Assembly: GCA_038874595.1 (NCBI GenBank) | Contig: JAVZCB010000002.1 | Coordinates: forward strand, 135,850 to 199,849 | Reading direction: 5' to 3' | DNA: 64,000 nt | Origin: Candidatus Micrarchaeia archaeon | GTDB lineage: Archaea > Micrarchaeota > Micrarchaeia > CAILAH01 | Shown here: positions 21,316-48,885 of the stretch, piece by piece | How the letters are laid out: each line of letters begins with the position of its first letter | Numbering within the stretch: position 1 is the first letter of the stretch | The notes under the pieces: model-generated | What the model was told of the DNA's origin: nothing | What the model saw: the letters and a program-made list of their open reading frames with translations, nothing else | Databases searched by the model: none | Position numbers and translations under genes: made by a program

Positions 21316-22311
21316 TCACAAAAATATCTCTTTTCTTTCCTTATCAATATTAAGTTTGATACCTGCGATCTTGCTTATCGTATATATATTTGTGGAAGCG
21401 TGGCTGGAAAGTAAGTTGTATCTTAACCTGCCTTTCCCTGCAAGTACAACATAAACCATCAGCTGGTCTACCATGTTTTGGTCTAATGCATTATGTTGTG
21501 CATCTTCCCTGTACAAGCGCAACAATTCATCCACCACCACTTCTGCTGGTTTGCCTGCCTGGCCAATCACATCAACACCTATATTATAATTATCATACTC
21601 ACTGATGAGCGTTATGGAATTCCCTTTGCTTGCACAGTTCATATAATTTGTTTTTATTACCTCGGTGCTGCTGCCTAAAGCACTCTTTATTCTTGCTTCT
21701 TCCCTTTCTAAGATGTGTGTGGGAAGATCAGCTAGTAATATGTACGCTGTTGTCTTTTTGAGTGCACCGCGCCCTGTAAGTTCTGCATTCTGTACGCCAG
21801 AGGGAAATATGGTAAGGCATACCTCACCACCACCCTGGGGGTAAAAGCCAGGCCGTTTCAGTTCAATGTGTGCCTTCACACCCATCCGCTGTATATTCGG
21901 TAAAAAGCAATAAGCAAAGTATTCGTATGTTGGCGATTTTATAACGTGTGTTCCTCCTTTAATTGTAACCGTGCTTTTTGCATCTGCAAATGTAAGTATA
22001 GGTATAAGTGCTTGCAAAAGCAGCGTTACCGAGCCCGCCGTGCCTATATCAAATTCAAAATCGCCCGCCTTAATCTCTGTTGGATAAAAAGATAACTTTG
22101 TTGAATTTAAGGTATTTCCTTCCACTTTTGCATTACACACTTTTGCAACAGCATTAACCGCTGCGAGGTGCTGAGGCAGGAGGCCTGGTTTTGGTCTGTT
22201 AGCCCTTATTTTAGTTATTGTGAATGGCGCTTTATATATTGCGCTTAAAGAAAGGGCAGTCCTAAGGATTTGGCCTCCGCCTTCTAAATATGACCCGTCT
22301 ATCTCTATCAC
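21316..22311 (-). CDS. rtcA: RNA 3'-terminal phosphate cyclase
   Basis: N-terminal [22 protein letters not shown] and overall length and architecture. Confidence 0.9.
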
Positions 22312-23674: not shown

Positions 23675-23740
23675 GGTATCAACTCCACAATGTGTAATAT
23701 AGTATACAATTATTTTTATAATTTCACAAATAACATAAAT

Positions 23741-26041
23741 GGCATGTGTGACATGTCTATAAAAGGAAATACGCTCGTTTTTGACTGCATTAATTCGCCA
23801 TATGAATTTATGAGCCCGGAATTTATAGCAAACAACATTCGTGCAATGACGACGCTTGTCCGCACAGATTTTGAGAAGATAAGGTATGAGGAGCAGCTGG
23901 TGTTTGAGTTATCGGGTGAAAAAGCAGAGATAATTCTTTCATACATCCGCTTTCTCAAACAGGTGGAAAAGCTCCTTATGAACAAGCAGATATATGGAAG
24001 AGAGGATGATGATTCATATGTGCTTAGGAAAACAACACTTTCAAAAGTTTATGAAGAGCTTATGATGAACCCGCTTTTTGCAGAGCGTACGATAAACGAG
24101 TATAACGAGCCGCAACCTACAAAATCTGCATTTTATGAGGCTTACAAGGCATACAAGGCATGGCTTAAAGGGATACAGCAGAAGCTCCAATCAACAAAAA
24201 TGTACCAGCTTGTAAAGGAAAAGGGAGACATGCGGCAGGCATTTATTTACCTTCTCAACATGAGGGTAATGAAGCTTGTAGATTCCCTCGAACTGCTTCT
24301 TCCGGAGGGTTCCAAACCGCTTGATAAACCAGGGGCAGCTTATGAGCTTGATTATGGATATAAAATTACAATATATGATGTTCCAGGTTCTGAATCCTAC
24401 TGGTATATTATAGATAATCCAATAATTAATTCGCTTCCAGAGGAGGTTATTGTTGAAGCAAGAAAGCTTATTGAAAGAGATATGGGGGCCGTCCGCGGTA
24501 TCCAGGTAAAAGATTACAATCTTTTGTTGGATGAAAAGACGCGCGAGTATCGCAAGTATTTCTTTGAGTGGGCAGATGAGCATAAAGTTCAATTAACGCC
24601 CGAACAGAGCCTCGTCCTAGCACGCGCATGTGCATCGTGGGTTGCAGGCCTAGGCGAACCCATAGAGGCAATATGTCTCGATAAGCGCAACATAACAGAC
24701 ATTTACATTGATTCTGAGAATGCCCCAATATATATTGACCATGCCAATTTTGGGATATGTCATACAGTATATAGGTATAATTCAAAGCTAGTAGACCAGC
24801 TGTTCTTTAACATTTTGGCAACAGACAAGTCAGCAGTTTACGGCCCGCAAAACCCCATAGTTGATGTTGTTATGAAGCGCCTAAATATGCGATGCCACTT
24901 ACAGGGCCCACCAGCAACGTTCGGGGAAAGGCAGGGTGCGCTACGTTTGATGAAACAGACCCCATTCACATACGCGGAATATTTACGCTATCACGCCTTT
25001 TCGGCCTTTTTTGCAGGTTACGATGATACGATGGTTTTTCTTGGAACTTCAGAGGCCGTGCTTGGCTTGAAAGGTGTAGGTAAAACTTCATTTACAGCGG
25101 CAAAGATGATTGCGATTGGAACAAAAACAAGGATAATCCCCATACAAGACATAGAGGAGATACCAGTTGCTGCCTATAGGAAACGCGGGTTTCATATAGG
25201 TGTGATGCGCTCAATGGCTTCAGATAAAGAGGTTGAGCAGGCGACAGCCGGCTCAGCACTCTCACTCGTTGCGCTTACAAGCGCAACACTTCGTATGGGC
25301 GATGCTGCACTCATAATAAACGAGGTCCGCTCACGCGCAGCAATACAAGGTATAATAAATCTTCTGAACACCCAGCCGGGCGTATTTGTCCTTTACAATT
25401 TGCATGCTGAGAGCCTTAAAGATATCCGGGATAGGTTAGAGCTCGTATTCGGTATTCCGGGAGCAAGCATGTTTGCAACTGACAGGTATACTTTCCTGAA
25501 GAAGGTGCGTTTTGGGAGAAAGAGTGCAACATACCGCCTCCTCGGCGCCGCATATGAGAGTAATATAGAAGAGAAGCGGTTTGAGGAGGTTTTTGTATTT
25601 GAAAGGGGGAAAGATATAGAATCATCACAATGCAAAGCGCTGTTTGTTGAAAATCCAGAGCTTAACAAGTGGCTCATTGATGATATAAATCTTGGTGATT
25701 TGCAGAAAAACCTCTCGCTAAAATTTATACCCCCTGCTTTGCAACGGCGCGCAGATGACCGCGGCATTGCACCTGAACAGATGATAATGCAGGCAGCGTT
25801 TAAGGGTAAGGTGTATTCACAAATATATAGGGCGTATGAAAAGTATGGGTATTACGAACTGCTTGAAATGGATTTTGTGCTTAAGGCATCCTCTCTAGCA
25901 AATAAGCTGCTCAAATCGCTTGAAGACGAGGAAGGAAATGTTAATTATGAGGTTGTTGATAGAGAATGGGAGGCAGAATTCCAGCAATTGCTATCTGAAG
26001 AGCTGGAATTTCTTCGCCTTAAGAAAGAGCAGGCGCGGTAA
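23741..26041 (+). CDS. divergent secretion-superfamily ATPase (FlaI/VirB11/TadA class) with long N-terminal extension
   Basis: Ordered motifs: Walker A GLKGVGKTS; Asp box TRIIPIQDIEEI; Walker B DAALIINEVRS (catalytic Glu kept); His box VLYNLHAES. Start set at Met18 so the TATA atttttataattt sits about 25 bp upstream. Confidence 0.5.
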   Translation, partial: GMCDMSIKGNTLVFDCINSPYEFMSPEFIANNIRAMTTLVRTDFEKIRYEEQLVFELSGEKAEIILSYIRFLKQVEKLLMNKQIYGREDDDSYVLRKTTLSKVYEELMMNPLFAERTINEYNEPQPTKSAFYEAYKAYKAWLKGIQQKLQSTKMYQLVKEKGDMRQAFIYLLNMRVMKLVDSLELLLPEGSKPLDKPGAAYELDYGYKITIYDVPGSESYWYIIDNPIINSLPEEVIVEARKLIERDMGAVRGIQVKDYNLLLDEKTREYRKYFFEWADEHKVQLTPEQSLVLARACASWVAGLGEPIEAICLDKRNITDIYIDSENAPIYIDHANFGICHTVYRYNSKLVDQLFFNILATDKSAVYGPQNPIVDVVMKRLNMRCHLQGPPATFGERQGALRLMKQTPFTYAEYLRYHAFSAFFAGYDDTMVFLGTSEAVLGLKGVGKTSFTAAKMIAIGTKTRIIPIQDIEEIPVAAYRKRGFHIGVMRSMASDKEVEQATAGSALSLVALTSATLRMGDAALIINEVRSRAAIQGIINLLNTQPGVFVLYNLHAESLKDIRDRLELVFGIPGASMFATDRYTFLKKVRFGRKSATYRLLGAAYESNIEEKRFEEVFVFERGKDIESSQCKALFVENPELNKWLIDDINLGDLQKNLSLKFIPPALQRRADDRGIAPEQMIMQAAFKGKVYSQIYRAYEKYGYYELLEMDFVLKASSLANKLLKSLEDEEGNVNYEVVDREWEAEFQQLLSEELEFLRLKKEQAR

Positions 26042-26044
26042 CCA

Positions 26045-26809
26045 TTAACTTTCCTCAAGATATACCCCATAAGGCACAAACACCAACAAGCCGTCTTTAT
26101 CATATATTATCAGCTCATCTCCCCCTGTGTTGAATATGTGCTGGCACAAGCATATTTTTCCAGCATTTTCTTTTTCGTCACAACAATTTTCTTCGATGCG
26201 CACAATCTCTTTAGGTGCGAGCCGTAAGTTTCTTTTGAACCTGTGCGATGCGCTTGTATCCCGTATGGTTATTTCTGTATCAACATTAATATCACACAAA
26301 TTTTCAATAGTGAACCCACCATTATCCCATTTTCCAAAGATGCATTCCTTGTAAAGGCTAGCCTTCCACATACACCCAGGTATATCTCTCCCCATGCTTT
26401 CAGCCTCGAAATACCTTTTCCAGTTAATACCCTCTTCTCTTCCATAATAAACATTTGCAAAGCCATTTGCCAGCATTGCATGGTTTACGTTTTTACCATT
26501 ATAATATACCTCTGCCAAGGCCCTTCCGTATTTTTCCTTTCCGTAAATTATAACCGACACCTCCTTCCCCCAAATTAAAGAGGTAAGGAAATTCTTCGCC
26601 TCCTCATAACAAAGCTCACCTTTTTCAGGCGTGTTTATACCAACCAAACGATACTTATTACCAGCATTATCTTCAAACGTATCGCCATCAATTACGTTGT
26701 ACACGAGCACTTTCTGTGATGTGACTCCAAACAAATAATCAACAACCAGGATGGCTGCAATAATAAAAATAGCAATCGCAACACCGTGCTGCCAGCGTAT
26801 CTTTATCAT
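26045..26809 (-). CDS. membrane-anchored staphylococcal-nuclease (SNase/thermonuclease)-like nuclease with C-terminal Cys-rich domain
   Basis: N-terminal TM (VAIAIFIIAAILVV). SNase motif VIDGDTFEDNAGNKYRLVGINTPEKGE. A Cys-rich tail of about 120 aa. Start chosen at MIKIRW, placing the palindromic TATA tgttttaaaca about 26 bp upstream. Confidence 0.65.
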   Translation of the reverse strand: MIKIRWQHGVAIAIFIIAAILVVDYLFGVTSQKVLVYNVIDGDTFEDNAGNKYRLVGINTPEKGELCYEEAKNFLTSLIWGKEVSVIIYGKEKYGRALAEVYYNGKNVNHAMLANGFANVYYGREEGINWKRYFEAESMGRDIPGCMWKASLYKECIFGKWDNGGFTIENLCDINVDTEITIRDTSASHRFKRNLRLAPKEIVRIEENCCDEKENAGKICLCQHIFNTGGDELIIYDKDGLLVFVPYGVYLEES

Positions 26810-26867
26810 CACTCTTCTCTTTTTATGAAATGTTTTAAACATTAATAACCCAAAATTTCCAGATGGG

Positions 26868-27231
26868 GCCATGGTGCAACCTGGCAACACGGCTGGCTCC
26901 AGACGAAGGGCAGACACCTACGGTTTCCGCCCTTCGCAACCCTACTTTCCCCTACGGGAAAAGGGACTGGTTTAATGAGAACTTTTTGGATGGCTAAAGG
27001 CCTCACCAAAAGAAGTTCGATGATTGCATAAACTGGAGCTTGTCAACACGCCCATTTGCATATGCAAATGGCGCATCATCCGCTTTGGCGGATGCTTGTG
27101 ACATGACCTGTCGTGTTGTATTGAGAAACCAGCAAATCGGGGTTCAAAAGAGGAGAGGAAGGGGGCTTTGCCCCCTCTCTCCCTCTACTCTCATACCTCT
27201 GAGGGGCGTGAAATGGAAATCCTCGTGGCCC
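26868..27231 (+). ncRNA. candidate structured RNA, about 360 nt, with paired 5' and 3' ends (SRP-RNA or RNase-P-RNA size class); identity unresolved
   Basis: GC-rich island without a credible ORF. 5' GGGGCCAUGG pairs with 3' CGUGGCCCC. Internal hairpins: 20-bp perfect palindrome CCATTTGCATATGCAAATGG (27052-27071), CATCCGC-TTTG-GCGGATG, and a 16-bp stem GAGGAGAGGAAGGGGGC-TTT-GCCCCCTCTCTCCCTC. A TATA-like element lies about 27 bp upstream of 26868. Confidence 0.4.
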
Positions 27232-27285
27232 CATCCTTATTAAAGCTTAAAATACTTACGACAGACATTTAAAAGGGGTGTATAT

Positions 27286-27696
27286 ATGGATTTAAAGAAA
27301 ACATGGGAACTTGCAAAAATGCCAGTAGTTGCTTTGGTAGTCTTAAGCATACTTTCTTTGATTATAGGTGTGCTTGCCCCAACAATGGGTATGATTGTTG
27401 GGTCGCTGGTTGGCCTGATAGGTCTAATTATATACATATATGCAGGTTACGTGGCAGCCAAAAACAAGATGGGGCTCGTTGAAGCCGGCCTGGTTGGTGC
27501 TGTTGTGGCGTTGGTTTCCGGCATTATCAACGGCATACTCGGCTTGCTGGCTGGCATGTTTATGATGGGCCCGAACGCACCAGCGTTTATTATAACACTC
27601 GGCTTGCTGGCAGTAGGCATCGTTGTCGGCGTGGTAATCGGTTTTGTACTGGCATTAATAGGGGCTGTGCTAGCCGGCTTTATAGGAAAGAAGTAA
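27286..27696 (+). CDS. small Gly/Ala-rich four-TM membrane protein
   Basis: SD-like AAAGGGGTG upstream. Four hydrophobic helices rich in GxxxG. Confidence 0.5.
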   Translation: MDLKKTWELAKMPVVALVVLSILSLIIGVLAPTMGMIVGSLVGLIGLIIYIYAGYVAAKNKMGLVEAGLVGAVVALVSGIINGILGLLAGMFMMGPNAPAFIITLGLLAVGIVVGVVIGFVLALIGAVLAGFIGKK

Positions 27697-29822: not shown

Positions 29823-30908
29823 CTATTTTTTATCCTGATTGCTTTTTAATCTTATAATCCTGGAGCGACCTTTTCCGACATTCTCTTTTACTTCAATTAT
29901 CCCAGATTTCTCCATTTTTGTAAGGTAATTTCTCACAGTTCTCTCATTCATGCCATCAAGCTTGGCATACAACTCACCGCTACTTATCTCACCATTCTTG
30001 AGTATTTCAATGATCTTTTTTTCTACCTCTCCAAGCTCAACCTCAACCTTCTCGATTTTTGCCTGCCGCGACTTTTGTGCAGCCGCCGCTTCCTCAACAC
30101 TTTGCACATCGAGTTTGGGCAGCCCTTTTTTTTCGGCAATCCTCCCCGCTGAAAGAAGTAGGCCGATACCAACCCTCGCATCACCGTTAAATTTGTACGC
30201 ATGCGCAGCACACACACCAATCGCCTCAGGCGAATATGAGCTGAACGCAAGCCGCGCCCTCTCCTCCAGTATCTGTTTAAGCTGTGGGACAGTATATGGT
30301 TTAAACTCAACATCTCTGTTTATTACGGAGCTCCTTATGCGCGGGTCCAGGGCGGCGAGCAGCCCAACATCATTAACAATCCCAATAACACTTATTTTTA
30401 CACCATAAACCTCATTCATCCTGCTGATATCATATAACACATCGCCGTGCCCACTTGCTACCAACCGGTCCATCTCATCAAGCACGACAACAACAAAAAT
30501 CCCCTTCTTTTTTATTATCTCAGCCATTCTTTTAAGCACATCCTCAACCGCAGCCCCTTTCATAGGCGATATATATCCCACACATCTTGCAATCTCACTT
30601 AAAATCCCAAACCTCGTGCCCATATGCCAGCAGTTTACATAAGTGATGCGGACCTTTCCAGAATATTCGGCGAGCTGCCTAATTACGTACTTGAGCACAG
30701 CTGTTTTTCCCGTCCCAGGCGGGCCATAGATAAGCAAGCTTTCAGGCTTCCTACCATTAAGTGCAACCTTAAAATTATGTGCAATCTCATTAATTTCCCT
30801 TTCCCTCCCAGGCAACCTTTCTGGAAGGTACTCTGGAAGCAGTACATCCTCATTGAGAAGAAGCTCGCCATAATCCATATACGACACCTTTACAGCAGCC
30901 GACACCAC
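29823..30908 (-). CDS. cdc6: Orc1/Cdc6 replication initiator
   Basis: AAA+ Walker A IYGPPGTGKTA, Walker B VVLDEMD, C-terminal winged helix. Confidence 0.9.
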   Translation of the reverse strand: MVSAAVKVSYMDYGELLLNEDVLLPEYLPERLPGREREINEIAHNFKVALNGRKPESLLIYGPPGTGKTAVLKYVIRQLAEYSGKVRITYVNCWHMGTRFGILSEIARCVGYISPMKGAAVEDVLKRMAEIIKKKGIFVVVVLDEMDRLVASGHGDVLYDISRMNEVYGVKISVIGIVNDVGLLAALDPRIRSSVINRDVEFKPYTVPQLKQILEERARLAFSSYSPEAIGVCAAHAYKFNGDARVGIGLLLSAGRIAEKKGLPKLDVQSVEEAAAAQKSRQAKIEKVEVELGEVEKKIIEILKNGEISSGELYAKLDGMNERTVRNYLTKMEKSGIIEVKENVGKGRSRIIRLKSNQDKK

Positions 30909-30922
30909 ACCATAAATAATAC

Positions 30923-31648
30923 CTAAAACCCAGCGGCACTTTCAAACACCGGCTGGCTAGGATAAAGCACAACACCTTTCCCTTCAACCATCTTAAGCGG
31001 GACCATCTTTTTGAAATGATTCGTCCCGCGCATCTTTACAACTTCAAGTGCAAAATCCCTGACCTCTTTTTTCCTGATAGAATGTATTGCAATGAACCCA
31101 TCAGCAATAAACTCAACGCCAAACTTAGCCTTCATATCTCCAAGCGTGTTTAATTCGCCTTCTGACGTGATAAGTGAAGTAACACCCCATTTCTTTAGGT
31201 TTGCGAACAGCTGCAGCACAGCCTGCCTCATCTTATAATCATTCTCAAAAAGCAATGCAAAAGAGGTTATCGAATCAATAACAACCCTCTTAATTCCCAT
31301 ATCCTTGATTGTATCTTCGATCACGGTTCCATCCTTGAAAAACTTTTCAGCCTCATGCGGAGCATACTGCATAAACCTGAACTTACCTTTTTTTTCAAGC
31401 ATCTCAAAATCCCAACCGAACCTCTTCATATGCCGGTAAACCTGCAATTTTGGTTCTTCAAATGTTATATAAAGACCGGATTCACCATATACAGCCGCCC
31501 CATTATGCAGAAACTGCAACGCAAGCGTGCTTTTTCCAGCACCCGCATCGGCAGCAACCATAATTATAGATTCTCTTTCAAAACCGCCTTCTATCATTTC
31601 ATCAAGGCCCTCAATACCAGTTGGTGCCCTGCCATTCTCGTTTGCCAT
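30923..31648 (-). CDS. KaiC-like RecA-superfamily ATPase (single domain)
   Basis: Walker A MVAADAGAGKST and a RecA/KaiC-fold core. 241 aa. Confidence 0.8.
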   Translation of the reverse strand: MANENGRAPTGIEGLDEMIEGGFERESIIMVAADAGAGKSTLALQFLHNGAAVYGESGLYITFEEPKLQVYRHMKRFGWDFEMLEKKGKFRFMQYAPHEAEKFFKDGTVIEDTIKDMGIKRVVIDSITSFALLFENDYKMRQAVLQLFANLKKWGVTSLITSEGELNTLGDMKAKFGVEFIADGFIAIHSIRKKEVRDFALEVVKMRGTNHFKKMVPLKMVEGKGVVLYPSQPVFESAAGF

Positions 31649-32707: not shown

Positions 32708-32780
32708 ACATTTGGAAAAATCCTAAATAAGCTTTTTGGAAATTTTTTCATATTATAAACATTTTCTGTCCTTTAATTTT

Positions 32781-35700
32781 ATGCGCGTGCCATTTTTTAT
32801 CTTAGCATTGCTTTTTGCACTTTCTCCATGCTTCGCTTTCAATGCAACTTACCTGGACCCAACAATTGAAAAGCCGTGGGAATTTAACAGCGTCTCGCTA
32901 CCAGATTTTATAACAAACGTGCTTCTCAATAGCCCTGGCAGGACAGACATTGACAATAGCTATATGTTTGCGCTTTCACCGGAAGTATCTTCACAGCTGA
33001 GCGAAGAGATACGCCACGCTAAGAATGCAGACCAGAATCTGAAAACGCTCGGTGAAAGTAGATACCTCCTCAAAGATGCAATCCAGAGTCATCTTAACGA
33101 GACAGTTGGAAAATCTGCCGCAGCAATCGCTTACATGCTTGTTCCTATGCTTGGGATGTTTTTGGCCATTGATGCGGGAACAGGGGCGATATATGAGGTT
33201 TCAGATCTTGGGGCGGAGATGCTATCAATATGTAAAAACCATTATACGGCAGCGGTAGCGGCAGTCGAGGAAAGCGAGCTGGCATACAACGGCCTGCTAT
33301 CAAAGGTTTCTATGGGTTACAGGGAGCTTTGGCTTATGGGTGCTCTCAATCCTTCCTATAAAGGCAGGTATGCCAACGACATCGCACAGCTAGAGTCGCG
33401 CCTTGCATCAATAGATGGCAAGCTGCTGCGTGAGCGGGAAGCCAGCATTAAGAAATATGCACATATGACTGCAAATGACCCGTCAGCTTATCATCCTCTT
33501 GTTTCAGAGTCAGTGTTCCAGGCCAGGTACCTGCTTGATGGGCAGGAATCAGCATTCTCAAAGCTTATTTTTGCATACACAGCCCAGAATTCAATAAAAG
33601 AGGGCCTTATCAAAGAGCGCGAATCAGCAAAGTCTTCCGCAGAAACACGTGCCGGGCAAATATCTGCAGAATACTCTGAGGTAAGTAAGAAATATGGGCA
33701 GATAACAGATGCAGATGTTGTATACTTTGGTATTGCTACGCTGGACACGCTTGATTCACCTTCAACCCATATTTCAAAAGCTTCTGAAAACATTGCAGAA
33801 TACACTTCCATCATCTCAGAAGGTGACAGGGTTTATGCTGCAAAATCATACGGATATGTTATAGACTCAATAAATGCATATTACTTAGCGCTTTCAAAGA
33901 TGGATAGTGCATCATATAACCTGAAAGAGGCGGCGCGGCGCGGAATCCTGATAGTCAGCTCTGCCGAAAATATAACACAAAAAGAGTATATTGCAGCAAC
34001 AGCTGCAGCATCTGCATTTATTCCTAAGACTGCGGCAGAGCAACAGCAGCTCTCTCTTGCTCGTAGCATGATCGAAAAGGCAGAAAAAGAAATGGCTCTT
34101 GCCAGCAATACTCCTGCTGAGAGGATATCACATCTTAAAATTGCGCTGAACAGCCTGCGCCTTGCCCGTGCATATCTTTCTCCAGACGAAGTGTTCCGTG
34201 CAAATGCCAAGGACTCAGCGGTGAGCTCACTTGATTATTTGAAATCGGTGATTGACCGTGCAAAAACAGATTCAATCGATGTTTCTTATGAAGAATCATA
34301 TTATAAAAGCAAAATGCTTGCATTGCAGAGCGGCAATTTAGCCGCTGCAGAAATGGTAAACATCTCACTCACATGCAACAACCTGACGGAACAAATATTT
34401 ATGCGTGGCGCTGCACAGTATTCACATCTTTCATCACGTTATGCCACATTGCTACCGCTGGCAACGTATTTTGAATCGCTTGATGGCAAGCCATTGAAAG
34501 AGTACACATTGCTCAACCCATACATAGACGCCACTGGCACTTTTGATAAATATCTATCGCTCGGGCATTACAAGGAGATAACTGGGCTCATAGCAGGGCT
34601 CGAAGCGCAAATACGTGTAAAAACGAAAGAGCTCATCCGCGAATCGCTTGAAAGAAACGCTGTTGTGAGCGTCAATTATGACAACGCAACGATTGTTTTA
34701 GATGTGCCTATCACGCGCAAGGTTGATGTATCTACATACAGTATTCTGGATTTAGAGTACAAAGGGCCTATTTCAACGAGCATTCGAATTCCCTATGACG
34801 TTTCAAGATCAAAGGCCAAGTATGATACGGCAGGGCTTTCTTATAGTTATACAAACAACCAGCTCAATATTCTTATCAACCAATACACCCCAAATAAGAT
34901 GTATACAATTTCTTTTGAGGACACGCAGGTTCTTGCAAGAACACAATCCGTTAAAAGGGAATCTACCCTTATTACGCCAACGCTGCTCAGGGTAAAAGTT
35001 GAGAGAAAAATAACCTCGCTCGGAACCCCCTATCTTAAAATCCCGGCAAACTATGATTATTCATATGTGTTGTATTATGATGGAGAGTACGTTGGGAGTT
35101 TTAATTATGATGCGGAAATAGCACGACCGATACCTGCAGGGGAGCATATATTAACAATGGTATATTCAATTGAAAACCCTTTTGTTGCTACATTGAACAG
35201 CGTATCTAGCACAAAAACCAGCACAACAATGTCTGTTATCATTAAAAACACAGTCCCATTTGATATTAGCGACGCTATGATAAGCTATGACATTCCGGCA
35301 GTATCCCCATCTTCTGTATTAGTATCATCTTCGGATTGTGAAATAAAATCAACTGCCAGCACACATTTTCCAACATACACGCGTCTTACCATAAACGTGA
35401 AGGCATTTTCAGCCAGCTCAAAATGTACTTTTGACATCCATGCAAGCACACCTATAAGCAAGGAGTATATTGAGGAGGAAATTGTACGCTTATCTAAAGA
35501 CAATACTGCATTGCAGAGTAAAGAGGTGGAAAACCACCTTAACAAGGCACGGAACGCATTCGAGACTGGAAAGTATGAAGATGCTCTTAAAGCAATCTCC
35601 GATGCGGACAAGACGCTGGTTGAGGCAAAGCGAGCAACCGAGCAAGCCAATCGCCAGGGAGAAGAGATAGAAAGGTTATCAAAACAAACCGCCTCGGTGT

Positions 35701-36650
35701 TAGCCAACTTATCAAATATGAATGATGTGGAAGTCCAAAAAGCGCTTGCCAAAATCAAGTCCTACTACGATTCCGCAAATGCTGAGGCCGAGCCTGCAAA
35801 GAAGCTTACATTCCTGCGAAAAGCAAACGATGAGGTTCTGGCTTTGAACACGCTTGTATACAGTAAGATATCCTCCATTTCAGAACGCCTTAATTCAGTA
35901 AAGCAGAAATGGCTTTTACTTATAGATAAGGGATACTCAAAAAGCATGCCGCCAGAGGTTGCGGAAGTAGAGTCCGTGCTTGCGATGGCATCTTCTTCCC
36001 CAAATCCAGATTCAAGCACGTTTTTGCAGCTTGGTAAGGCCTCCTCAATTCTAGATTTGCTTGAAATATCAGTAAAGAACGCAGACAAAAATGCATCTGA
36101 ATGGGAATCTTCACTTAAAGAGAGGTTTAAGTCATCAGTTACCATGTTAAAGGCCGCAATAGCCCAGCTCACAAAAGCGTGCGGTACAAAGTGCCCCCAA
36201 GATATGGTTTCTTATTCCCAGTCACTATTATCCTTGAATCCACAAACACCGTCTGAATATTCTATTTCGATAGATACAATAAACAAAACGCTTTCCAGCA
36301 TTAACACCTATATATCTACAGAGCGCTCAGCCGCAAACACGGCAATATCAGAGCTTAAATCAATATCCTTAACAATATCGGACCCGCGCGTGAAACAGGT
36401 GCTAACACCAAAAATCCAGGAGATTGAGTCTATGTATGTTGCGGGAGAATATTCTCGAGCAAAAGAGGCAGCAATTGCAGTCAAAGAAAGCCTCACAGGC
36501 ACACCACAGAAACCAGCAGGTGATTATACCCTTATCCTTGCTGGACTTGCAGTAATTGCAATCTCCTTTATAATATTAAAGATGCGTGAGCGCGGCGCAA
36601 AATCAAATGAAGCAATTCAAGAGGCAAAACAGCTAAAACGCGAAAAATAA
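32781..36650 (+). CDS. very large (about 1290 aa) Ala/Ser-rich coiled-coil surface protein with signal peptide and C-terminal TM anchor
   Basis: Signal MRVPFFILALLFALSPCFA. Long helical low-complexity body. C-terminal TM LILAGLAVIAISFIIL followed by basic residues. Confidence 0.6.
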   Translation: MRVPFFILALLFALSPCFAFNATYLDPTIEKPWEFNSVSLPDFITNVLLNSPGRTDIDNSYMFALSPEVSSQLSEEIRHAKNADQNLKTLGESRYLLKDAIQSHLNETVGKSAAAIAYMLVPMLGMFLAIDAGTGAIYEVSDLGAEMLSICKNHYTAAVAAVEESELAYNGLLSKVSMGYRELWLMGALNPSYKGRYANDIAQLESRLASIDGKLLREREASIKKYAHMTANDPSAYHPLVSESVFQARYLLDGQESAFSKLIFAYTAQNSIKEGLIKERESAKSSAETRAGQISAEYSEVSKKYGQITDADVVYFGIATLDTLDSPSTHISKASENIAEYTSIISEGDRVYAAKSYGYVIDSINAYYLALSKMDSASYNLKEAARRGILIVSSAENITQKEYIAATAAASAFIPKTAAEQQQLSLARSMIEKAEKEMALASNTPAERISHLKIALNSLRLARAYLSPDEVFRANAKDSAVSSLDYLKSVIDRAKTDSIDVSYEESYYKSKMLALQSGNLAAAEMVNISLTCNNLTEQIFMRGAAQYSHLSSRYATLLPLATYFESLDGKPLKEYTLLNPYIDATGTFDKYLSLGHYKEITGLIAGLEAQIRVKTKELIRESLERNAVVSVNYDNATIVLDVPITRKVDVSTYSILDLEYKGPISTSIRIPYDVSRSKAKYDTAGLSYSYTNNQLNILINQYTPNKMYTISFEDTQVLARTQSVKRESTLITPTLLRVKVERKITSLGTPYLKIPANYDYSYVLYYDGEYVGSFNYDAEIARPIPAGEHILTMVYSIENPFVATLNSVSSTKTSTTMSVIIKNTVPFDISDAMISYDIPAVSPSSVLVSSSDCEIKSTASTHFPTYTRLTINVKAFSASSKCTFDIHASTPISKEYIEEEIVRLSKDNTALQSKEVENHLNKARNAFETGKYEDALKAISDADKTLVEAKRATEQANRQGEEIERLSKQTASVLANLSNMNDVEVQKALAKIKSYYDSANAEAEPAKKLTFLRKANDEVLALNTLVYSKISSISERLNSVKQKWLLLIDKGYSKSMPPEVAEVESVLAMASSSPNPDSSTFLQLGKASSILDLLEISVKNADKNASEWESSLKERFKSSVTMLKAAIAQLTKACGTKCPQDMVSYSQSLLSLNPQTPSEYSISIDTINKTLSSINTYISTERSAANTAISELKSISLTISDPRVKQVLTPKIQEIESMYVAGEYSRAKEAAIAVKESLTGTPQKPAGDYTLILAGLAVIAISFIILKMRERGAKSNEAIQEAKQLKREK

Positions 36651-37984: not shown

Positions 37985-38677
37985 TTATTTTTTTCTACAC
38001 ACAATAAACAAATGGTGCTTTTCGTATGGGTCAAGCTCAAAGCTCTCCAGGATTTCAAAAGTCCCCCCTAAGTTTGAGAGCACCCTCCTATACACTTCCT
38101 GCGGTTTCAGTGTCACATCAATTGATTGGGATTTTACAGCAATCATTGCAATCCCGTTTTTTTTCAGGTATCTGGAATTCTCAATAAGTATTCTATCTTG
38201 GTCTGGTTGTGCAACATCTTCAAATAACACATCTACCACGCCAACATAACTATATTTTTGGGGAAGCCGTGCATCTGCGAGCACCGGCCAGATATTTTTT
38301 CTGTTTTCACACCGTAAGAGCAGGTCTTTCATGCATTCAGGTGAAAACTCAACAGCATATATCCTGCCATCTTCACCAATAATATCTGATATAAAACTTA
38401 CCGTAACGCCTGCAGCCGCACCCAAGTAAAGCACTTTCACGCCTTCTCTAAAAGGCCACGTCTTAAGTCCTTTCATCATTGCCGCTCCAAGCTTACTCCT
38501 CTTTGGGTCCCATACCCTATACTCCTTTCCATCCTCTTTAACGATTTGCTCGCCATGCACCCGCACACCAGGGTCTAAACTCAAGGTGGCAATTTTCCCG
38601 TCAATTTCATAAACCCCATAATATGAAGATTTTTTAATAACCATGGCTAAATTAGGAAAGTGAAAGCACATAAACAA
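37985..38677 (-). CDS. flpA: fibrillarin (rRNA/tRNA 2'-O-methyltransferase)
   Basis: VLYLGAAAGVTVSFISDIIG, IYAVEFSPEC, NIWPVLADARLPQKY and VDVLFEDVAQPDQ are collinear with fibrillarin. Confidence 0.9.
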   Translation of the reverse strand: MFMCFHFPNLAMVIKKSSYYGVYEIDGKIATLSLDPGVRVHGEQIVKEDGKEYRVWDPKRSKLGAAMMKGLKTWPFREGVKVLYLGAAAGVTVSFISDIIGEDGRIYAVEFSPECMKDLLLRCENRKNIWPVLADARLPQKYSYVGVVDVLFEDVAQPDQDRILIENSRYLKKNGIAMIAVKSQSIDVTLKPQEVYRRVLSNLGGTFEILESFELDPYEKHHLFIVCRKK

Positions 38678-39637: not shown

Positions 39638-39793
39638 TGCGGCTGCCGGGATTTTCACATGCACCCAGCACGTTATTGTATGGAGTGCCCTGCTTTGAAC
39701 CCGGGTCTTAGCCTTTTTGAGAAGCACCGCATTTTTGGCGCTCAAAAAAGCGGCATGGCAAGGCCATGTCCTACCAGGCTAGACTACAGCCGC
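39638..39793 (-). tRNA. tRNA-Gly(GCC) with two predicted introns (after position 37 and inside the T-loop after position 58)
   Basis: Minus-strand read: acceptor GCGGCUG/CAGCCGC (7 bp) with discriminator A. D-arm GUCU-AGCCUGGUA-GGAC. Anticodon stem UGGCC/GGCUA with loop UUGCCA[41-nt intron]A. T-stem CCGGG/CCCGG with T-loop UUCAA[42-nt intron]AU. Exons sum to 73 nt. Confidence 0.55.
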
Positions 39794-48731: not shown

Positions 48732-48885
48732 TGGACCCGCCCAGATTTTCAAGAAGGAACAACCGCAACTCGCGCGTGTTCGCGAAGCGAACTACCTGGG
48801 AGCGCGAGGGGCGGATGCGCCATCGCATTGAACTGGGGATCTTTCCCGTGTCAGGGGAACGTCTTAACCACTCGACTACGGGTCC
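48732..48885 (-). tRNA. tRNA-Val(GAC) with a predicted 81-nt intron inside the T-loop
   Basis: Minus-strand read: acceptor GGACCCG/CGGGUCC with discriminator A. D-arm GUCG-AGUGGUUA-AGAC. Anticodon stem UUCCC/GGGAA with loop CUGACAC. Variable loop AGAUC. T-stem CCCAG/CUGGG with T-loop UUCAA[intron]AU. The intron 3' end CUUGAAA can pair with exon UUCAAG. Exons sum to 73 nt. Confidence 0.6.

Follow-up and report, generated by a model that had tools for sequence, protein, structure and literature searches.

We found that positions 26865 to 27233 (+) of the window, by which we mean the whole 64,000-nucleotide stretch of Candidatus Micrarchaeia DNA analyzed here, very probably hold a tRNA-Trp(CCA) gene of these DPANN archaea. 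As judged from its sequence, the gene is interrupted by two introns of the bulge-helix-bulge type and carries a box C/D-like module in intron 1. It belongs to a known kind, a housekeeping gene with protein-spliced introns; what is unusual is the length and modular build of the introns, the extra intron in the T-loop, and the non-canonical form of the guide-like module. A sequence-only reading of this DNA had described the region as a structured RNA, possibly signal recognition particle (SRP, or 7S) RNA or RNase P RNA. Its claim of a structured noncoding RNA gene was borne out: the plus strand folds with −163.4 kcal/mol (z = −7.28), and none of 100 dinucleotide shuffles folded as well; the minus strand of the same region also folds (z = −5.6). 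There is, as had been stated, no credible open reading frame (ORF), merely short overlapping ORFs on both strands in 26865-27235. The region was also called GC-rich, and its GC content is indeed raised, but only modestly, at about 0.50 versus 0.43 in the whole window.

The gene consists of three exons at 26865-26902, 27128-27148, and 27220-27233 (38, 21, and 14 nt), which, when joined, form a 73-nt cloverleaf that ARAGORN calls as tRNA-Trp(cca). Exon 1 supplies tRNA nucleotides 1 to 37, comprising the 5′ strand of the acceptor stem (GGGGCCA), U8, a D-arm with A14, G18G19, and A21, the anticodon stem strand GCUGG, and the loop sequence CUCCAG, in which the anticodon CCA lies at 26899-26901. Exon 2 supplies nucleotides 38 to 59, namely, A38, the 3′ strand of the anticodon stem (CCAGC), the variable loop AAAU, the T-stem strand CGGGG, and UUCAAA of the T-loop. 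Exon 3 covers nucleotides 60 to 73, with U60, the 3′ strands of the T-stem (CCUCG) and the acceptor stem (UGGCCCC), and the discriminator A73; the terminal CCA is not encoded. The joined exons have the geometry of a tRNA, with a 7-bp acceptor stem, a D-arm, a 5-bp anticodon stem with a 7-nt loop, and a 5-bp T-stem with a 7-nt T-loop. All of the universal tRNA nucleotides (U8, A14, G18G19, A21, U33, G53, U54U55C56, A58, and C61) could be read in the exons, and the T-loop agrees with the consensus UUCRANY. The anticodon CCA and A73 both suit tRNA-Trp, A73 being the typical discriminator of archaeal and eukaryal tRNA-Trp. The paired termini noted earlier, GATGGGGCCA at 26862-26871 with TGGCCCCATC at 27226-27235, are real, and the terminal helix of the locus is the 7-bp acceptor stem GGGGCCA/UGGCCCC.

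Comparison with related loci supported this assignment. A search of genome contigs with the flanking HD-domain protein returned only one syntenic relative, L001 (79% protein identity), an “uncultured Candidatus Micrarchaeota” contig whose copy of the RNA region is 82% identical to that of the window. Most homologs came from an exact-sequence look-up of orthologs of the divergently transcribed SNase gene (44 to 54% protein identity), and a metagenome scan with an exon-1 pattern added two contigs, both truncated at one end. In this way, we obtained eight distinct Micrarchaeia versions of the locus, always situated between the SNase gene and the side that carries the genes for tyrosyl-tRNA synthetase (TyrRS), the HD-domain protein, and Orc1/Cdc6; the gene order Orc1/Cdc6-TyrRS-(HD)-tRNA-Trp-SNase is kept in the relatives. 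When the relatives were aligned, three short blocks proved essentially invariant, while the sequence between them was hypervariable in both length and content, so that the locus as a whole measures 197 to 701 nt among close relatives.

The exons are under purifying selection, being approximately 100% identical in the eight lineages, compared with introns of 0 to 427 nt and flanking SNase proteins with 44 to 54% identity. Exon 1 is the same in seven of the eight lineages; L011 alone deviates, and its two changes, C13U and A22G, covary, turning a C·A mismatch at 13:22 into a U·G pair. Exon 2 does not change among the relatives except at position 45, and exon 3 is unchanged in all complete homologs. 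L011 also serves as a natural control because it lacks the second insert: the sequence UUCAAA|UCCUCG is contiguous there, and ARAGORN called tRNA-Trp(cca) with a 124-nt intron in the unmodified DNA. When intron 2 alone was excised from the six complete loci, ARAGORN itself placed introns of 225, 204, 351, 154, 124, and 201 nt. Together, the L011 control and the introns placed by ARAGORN remove the circularity of splicing the gene by eye.

A TATA-like, near-palindromic element, ATGTTTTAAACAT, lies at 26830-26842 and is a predicted promoter element common to this gene and the divergent SNase gene; as had been pointed out, it stands at a similar distance from the 5′ end of the RNA and from the SNase start codon (26809), and we place it about 27 to 29 nt from both. 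An element at the same distance is kept in L001, L007, L008, L011, and L016, where it reads (G/A)TTTTAAACATT, ATTTAAACATT, TTTTAAATATT, or TTTATAAGCA. Since its center lies about 27 to 29 nt 5′ of G1, a leader of 0 to 4 nt is implied. On the other side, a pyrimidine- and T-rich trailer, UCCUUAUUAA, occupies 27234-27243 (+) and, by its sequence, is likely the terminator region; clearer T-runs stand at this position in the relatives (UCCUUUCUUUUC, UCCUUUCUUUUUU, CUCUUUUUU, and UUUUUAUU).

Both inserts occupy known archaeal intron sites, 37/38 and 59/60. Intron 1 (26903-27127 [+], 225 nt), as placed by ARAGORN after removal of intron 2, sits at the canonical position 37/38. Intron 2 (27149-27219 [+], 71 nt) interrupts the T-loop; the geometry of its bulge-helix-bulge motif puts it at 59/60, although runs of A leave 56/57 to 59/60 equivalent in sequence. 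Its predicted splice motif is well formed: beyond the T-stem, U54-A57 pair with UGGA (27214-27217) in a 4-bp helix flanked by 3-nt bulges consisting of A58, A59, and a27149 on one side and a27218, a27219, and U60 on the other. In folds, this helix with both 3-nt bulges was seen in the window, L007, and L016, and the 3′ bulge was larger in L001 and L008. Intron 2 also contains the stem-loop at 27150-27185, which had been described as a perfect 16-bp stem; the stem-loop is present, but it has two single-nucleotide mismatches, so that perfect pairing is confined to the inner 7 bp (AGGGGGC/GCCCCCT). At the 3′ splice site region of intron 1 (27122-27127), UGAG (27122-27125) faces C35-C32 with three of four pairs formed, as it also does in L008 and L011, and AA (27126-27127) together with A38 makes a 3-nt bulge abutting the anticodon stem.

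The lengths of the two introns vary widely among the relatives. Intron 1 and intron 2, respectively, measure 204 and 45 nt in L001, 351 and 104 nt in L007, 154 and 59 nt in L008, 124 and 0 nt in L011, and 201 and 427 nt in L016; in L012, intron 1 is 293 nt long, and intron 2 runs past the end of the contig. A 2014 review gives a range of 11 to 129 nt for archaeal tRNA introns and a median of 65 nt for tRNA-Trp (PMC4090602), and the longest of the Micrarchaeia tRNA-Trp introns (124 to 351 nt for intron 1 and 0 to 427 nt for intron 2) thus exceed the published range. The 427-nt intron 2 of L016 (24-450 [−]) is the longest insert of the set and contains about 10 GC-rich hairpins.

Much of the length of intron 1 is taken up by hairpin domains. 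The first, CGAAGGGC...GCCCUUCG at 26904-26936 (+), was recognized as an inverted repeat and in folds, starts at the second intron nucleotide, close to the 5′ splice site, and is modeled as helix h′ of a relaxed bulge-helix-bulge motif. Directly after it comes the recurrent motif CAACCC, and then a further hairpin, CCCUACUUUCCC-CUAC-GGGAAAAGGG, at 26940-26965 (+), whose stem is changed to AUCCC/GGGAU in L008 with pairing retained. Hairpins similar to the first are present at intron 5′ ends in the relatives. The GAAGGGCCCCCAGCGCGGCCCUUC hairpin at the 5′ end of intron 2 in L008 (3708-3731) shares an identical stretch of 19 to 22 nt with the hairpin at the start of intron 1 in L007 and L016 (22 nt in the case of L007); either such modules move from one intron to the other, or the helix beside the 5′ splice site is under strong constraint from the endonuclease. 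The 3′ domain of intron 1 (27044-27118 [+]) is closed by the helix CAACACG/CGUGUUG around three hairpins, at 27052-27071, 27077-27094, and 27099-27113. The first two correspond to the perfect 20-nt palindrome CCATTTGCATATGCAAATGG and the 7-bp hairpin CATCCGC/GCGGATG of the sequence-only reading; they show compensatory changes in L001 and L007 and are absent from L008, L011, and L016. The third (UGRCA/UGYCG) occurs in all lineages, with one pair swapping from G-C to A-U. The 3′-domain hairpins are real RNA helices, but they are lineage-specific expansions of an intron.

Two short sequence relationships between intron 1 and the exons were also recorded. The motif (C/G)GCAACCC, at 26935-26942 in the window, recurs after hairpins in intron 1 of L007, L012, and L016 (for example, UCGCAACCCGCGGCAACCCGUGG in L007), and because it resembles the D-loop segment GUGCAACCUGGCAAC of the exon, a duplication of exon sequence may have given rise to some of the intron. 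The segment G(U/C)CGUGUUG (27109-27118) is complementary over 9 bp to exon-1 positions 20 to 28 (CAACACGGC, 26885-26893) and also pairs with CAACACG (27044-27050) of the intron itself, which could represent an alternative pairing or a folding switch. Against a role of this 9-nt complementarity (GCCGUGUUG) as a misfolding switch or as a third guide stand the non-compensatory changes in L011 and the engagement of the segment in an intron hairpin.

The central part of intron 1 has a layout shared by all lineages, in which CUGGUUUA is followed by (A/C)UGA, a hairpin stem, N-A-U, GA, and UUG (giving AUGAUUG), the spacer CAUAAA, and CUGGAGC. Antisense element 1, CUGGUUUA at 26967-26974 (+), is unchanged in seven of the eight lineages, with CUAGUUUA in L001; its CUGGUUU portion pairs with the final two intron nucleotides and A38-G42. 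The adjoining box D (26975-26978 [+]), which forms the non-bulged strand of a kink-turn, reads AUGA in the window, CUGA in L008 and L011, and AUGA elsewhere, and counting upstream from it, the fifth nucleotide is the G that faces C39 (CUGGUUUA|CUGA), exactly as the fifth-nucleotide rule for box C/D guides demands. The kink-turn stem is a hairpin with a variable tip (26979-27018 [+], GAACUU...AAGUUC), in which five of five proximal pairs differ on both sides and 100% of the cells are paired across eight sequences. It is followed at 27019-27026 (+) by a G-A-U bulge, tandem G·A nucleotides, and the box C-like heptamer AUGAUUG (27020-27026), which is invariant in all eight lineages and matches five of the seven positions of the box C consensus RUGAUGA, with the UGAU core intact. 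The geometry is that of a kink-turn formed by boxes C and D beside a canonical stem, with UGA leading directly into the stem on one strand and the stem, a 3-nt bulge, and GA on the other. Antisense element 2, CUGGAGC (27033-27039 [+]), is complementary to the exon-1 stretch G31-G37, in which C34 lies. The conserved spacer CAUAAA stands before this element and N-UG-Y after it, and its pairing with exon 1 occurs in every constrained fold. That the intron helices covary among the homologous loci was supported by a covariation score of 0.166 for the whole tested structure, compared with 0.074 in shuffles (none of 500 reached the observed value) and at most 0.056 in slid controls.

By analogy with Haloferax, we slightly favor the view that this kink-turn element guides 2′-O-methylation of C39, and possibly of C34, together with L7Ae, Nop5, and fibrillarin. 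Several features count against it. There is no GA-containing D′ box after CUGGAGC in the lineages compared (just N-UG-Y), only one recognizable kink-turn, and no conserved C box upstream of CUGGUUUA; a second C′/D′ pair was thus not found, and the order guide-D-hairpin-C-guide departs from the canonical C-guide-D′-C′-guide-D. From the C box to the putative D′, the spacer measures 13 to 15 nt instead of 12, the guide duplexes are just 7 bp long, and aligning the conserved UG to the UG of CUGA points to C35 and not to C34. In addition, L001 carries a G-to-A change in the C39 guide, and the 64-kb window yielded no gene for Nop5 or L7Ae. It is because of the missing D′ box, the short guides, the spacer, the box order, and the missing Nop5 and L7Ae that we hold guide function at little better than even. 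Other candidates for a second box pair were discarded: GGGA(A/U) upstream of the first guide, considered as part of a terminal C/D pair, lies in a hairpin that covaries, and the spacing of UUGA close to the 3′ splice site is inconsistent. A regex scan detected no canonical C/D small RNAs in the window.

The most serious competitor, which we consider somewhat less probable than guide function but far from negligible, accepts the tRNA and its introns as described and holds that the kink-turn, with L7Ae, merely scaffolds the intron and that CUGGAGC/CUCCAG is an ordinary anticodon-intron helix. The single kink-turn, the lack of a GA-containing D′, the 7-bp guides, and the atypical spacer all fit such a role, as does the position of the CUCCAG:CUGGAG helix, which in every constrained fold is stacked upon the anticodon stem; in Sulfolobus, moreover, similar 7-bp complementarities occur without consensus boxes (PMC3326292). 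Against a purely structural element stand the complement of C39 lying exactly 5 nt upstream of CUGA/AUGA in all lineages and the constancy of the antisense elements (element 1 in seven of eight lineages) and the box C-like heptamer amid variable surroundings. Haloferax targets the same positions, 34 and 39 (PMC4090602), and a fibrillarin gene is present in the window at 37985-38677 (−) (Pfam PF01269, E = 1.2e-78).

The assignment as a functional, spliced tRNA gene must also be set against several observations that weigh against it. The Rfam tRNA model RF00005 gave no match at the window locus, nor at the single-intron locus L011; the model penalizes insertions of 124 to 225 nt, which explains the miss, and the identification therefore rests on ARAGORN and the comparative evidence. 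With default settings, ARAGORN called no tRNA in the window or in four related loci, and with introns allowed it still made no call at the unmodified window locus, because the gene has two introns. Intron 1 has a weak bulge-helix-bulge motif, whose central helix forms just three of four pairs in every lineage and whose helix h′ is a local hairpin and not a pairing between the two intron ends; cleavage of intron 1 is thus predicted on the assumption of an EndA with broad specificity. Neither EndA nor RtcB was found in the 64-kb window. One could accordingly suppose a tRNA-Trp pseudogene wrecked by GC-rich hairpin insertions, with the inserts being very long for tRNA introns, the central helix of intron 1 poor, and the hairpin modules insertion-like and different among lineages. 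We regard this as very improbable. The exons are invariant across lineages in which flanking proteins share only about 50% identity, and the one change seen in an exon is compensatory; the promoter element and the T-rich trailer are conserved; the inserts lie exactly at the two sites where archaeal introns are commonest; in intron 2, a proper 4-bp helix is combined with 3-nt bulges, and the intron helices covary. Furthermore, the metagenome scan with the exon-1 pattern revealed no further copy of tRNA-Trp, and both extra matches carry the intron as well.

That the locus encodes an SRP or RNase P RNA, perhaps one too divergent for the available models, now has next to no credibility. It shares with archaeal SRP RNA (RF01857) and RNase P RNA (RF00373 and RF02357) a similar length (about 370 nt), paired ends, a strong fold, and, as a gene for a housekeeping RNA, a promoter of its own. 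We searched Rfam 15 with gathering thresholds over the whole window and with E ≤ 10 and permissive filters on 26700-27400. At the gathering thresholds, the only matches in the window were two tRNAs, both outside this locus, and at E ≤ 10, just chance microRNA-type matches to the hairpin at 27146-27190 were obtained; archaeal SRP RNA, RNase P RNA (types A, M, and T), and transfer-messenger RNA matched at neither level. The defining motifs are missing as well: the locus sequence contains neither SRP helix 8, with its GNAR tetraloop and conserved symmetric and asymmetric loops, nor the Alu-domain loops, and it lacks the CR-I (GAGGAAAGUCC) and CR-V (ACAGAA..GGCUUA) motifs of the RNase P helix P4. 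The loose GACGAAGGGCAGAC offered as a possible SRP helix 8 is instead the 5′ arm of the simple intron hairpin at 26904-26936. Unlike the cores of these RNAs, the locus has lengths between 197 and 701 nt in close relatives, with three short invariant blocks, and these blocks assemble into a complete tRNA-Trp(CCA). A miniature inverted-repeat transposable element (MITE) or a replication-origin structure, which the 10-nt terminal inverted repeats, the several palindromes, and an Orc1/Cdc6 gene at 29823-30908 (−) might suggest, is equally implausible, because the locus is single-copy within the window and hence no repeat and no MITE, occupies the same syntenic position in all relatives, has an acceptor stem for terminal repeats, and is neither AT-rich nor equipped with repeated origin-recognition-box-like elements.

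Taking the locus as an intron-bearing tRNA-Trp gene, we propose the following course of events, modeled on established archaeal tRNA biology. Transcription would be driven by the TATA-like element some 27 nt upstream of the gene. EndA, the splicing endonuclease, would cut both relaxed bulge-helix-bulge motifs, an epsilon2 EndA of broad specificity that cleaves 59/60 introns being known from Micrarchaeum, and an RtcB-type ligase would join the exons, after which CCA would be added; the excised introns would probably be circularized. The kink-turn and the two 7-nt antisense elements of intron 1 would act on the anticodon arm of the tRNA itself, where L7Ae, Nop5, and fibrillarin may assemble to direct 2′-O-methylation of C39, for which the fifth-nucleotide fit is exact, and possibly of C34. 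The remaining hairpin domains would be lineage-variable expansions. As a bolder extension, which we put forward only tentatively and consider rather unlikely as a whole, the Micrarchaeia introns may be the longest protein-spliced tRNA introns noted, they may lengthen and shorten as GC-rich hairpin modules, exchanged between the two, are gained and lost, and excised, probably circular intron 1 may constitute a permuted box C/D ribonucleoprotein with a single kink-turn.

The closest precedent is the tRNA-Trp intron of Haloferax. In archaea, a box C/D RNA directing the formation of Cm34 and Um39 is nested in tRNA-Trp introns, and the Haloferax intron is such a guide, for 2′-O-methylation of C34 and U39 (Clouet d'Orval 2001 and Singh 2004, as summarized in PMC4090602 and PMC3326292). 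The locus analyzed here resembles the precursors of Haloferax volcanii and other euryarchaea in being a tRNA-Trp(CCA) with an intron at 37/38 that is complementary to positions 34 and 39, in having a C/D-type kink-turn, and in following the rule of the fifth nucleotide upstream of box D for its putative position-39 target. It differs from the Haloferax intron (105 nt) in length, with 225 nt in the window and 124 to 351 nt in relatives, in having one kink-turn with the order D-hairpin-C, a C box AUGAUUG, a D box AUGA, and no GA-containing D′, and in its 7-bp guides, the target C39 instead of U39, the large extra hairpin domains, and the second intron in the T-loop. The tRNA-Trp intron of Sulfolobus solfataricus is 65 nt long and becomes a stable circular RNA with two 7-bp complementarities and no consensus C/D boxes (PMC3326292). 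The complementarities lie at the same places as here, where circularization after excision is likewise expected, but the present locus has a clear, covarying kink-turn and an intron that is three to five times longer.

For the splicing side, the nearest relative is Candidatus Micrarchaeum acidiphilum ARMAN-2, in which multi-intron tRNAs, 59/60 introns, and relaxed hBH motifs occur and are cleaved by an epsilon2 endonuclease (PMC3239211); its disrupted tRNA genes and this endonuclease are treated in PMC3239211, PMC3488258, and PMC12397907. ARMAN-2 belongs to the same phylum-level lineage and, like the window, has tRNAs with more than one intron, T-loop insertions at 59/60, and motifs of the relaxed hBH type. 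The introns tested in ARMAN-2, however, were 13 to 25 nt long, in contrast to 71 and 225 nt here and up to 427 nt in a relative. No tRNA-Trp guide intron was described there, “Trp” having 0 occurrences in PMC3239211.

The other tRNA genes of the window are built in a similar manner. A tRNA-Gly(GCC) gene at 39638-39793 (−) carries two introns, each 41 nt long, at 37/38 and in the T-loop; Rfam matched it with 40.7 bits and two 43-nt inserts, ARAGORN missed it with default settings, and its spliced form was called as tRNA-Gly(gcc). A tRNA-Val(GAC) gene at 48732-48885 (−) contains an 81-nt T-loop intron (48747-48827), its spliced form was called by ARAGORN as tRNA-Val(gac), and Rfam gave a partial 57-nt match (29.3 bits) with a false 3′ end. 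All three tRNA genes of the window thus bear a T-loop intron.

The tRNA-Trp gene lies in the neighborhood of genes for an RNA 3′-terminal phosphate cyclase (RtcA; 21316-22311 [−]), Orc1/Cdc6, and a KaiC/RadA-like ATPase (30923-31648 [−]). Two large conserved proteins of 783 amino acids (23690-26041 [+]) and 1,304 amino acids (32736-36650 [+]) have no Pfam match, and the former is syntenic in all related loci (762 to 765 amino acids). Directly downstream of the tRNA-Trp gene is an ORF for a 136-amino-acid, Gly/Ala/Ile-rich, multi-pass membrane protein (27286-27696 [+]), also without a Pfam match; at the corresponding place in L001 (7998-9235 [−]), there are three ORFs of similar size (134, 135, and 87 amino acids), matched by size and position only. 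The fibrillarin gene is not adjoined by a Nop5 gene, and its upstream neighbor, on the opposite strand, encodes an LPG-synthase-type membrane protein.

Default ARAGORN and the Rfam tRNA model both miss the tRNA-Trp gene, which is why the sequence-only reading, and presumably annotation pipelines as well, saw an anonymous structured RNA. As tRNA-Trp is the sole decoder of UGG, a genome in which pipelines miss this gene looks incomplete or host-dependent. “Unidentified disrupted tRNA genes” in DPANN archaea have been flagged in the literature (PMC5829648), and the locus is a concrete, well-supported example of such under-annotated tRNA sets. Its introns and those of the relatives, forming a series from 0 to 427 nt, are natural substrates for studying splicing endonucleases of broad specificity. 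The intron retains a kink-turn together with the two complementarities to the anticodon arm that have been described in Haloferax and Sulfolobus, which points to an ancient origin of the tRNA-Trp intron guide and to its conservation in DPANN. If intron 1 does act as a guide with a single kink-turn, the permuted guide-D-stem-C-guide order would be a minimal architecture outside the canonical C/D-C′/D′ model, and the range of the tRNA-Trp intron guide would extend from Euryarchaeota and Crenarchaeota to DPANN.

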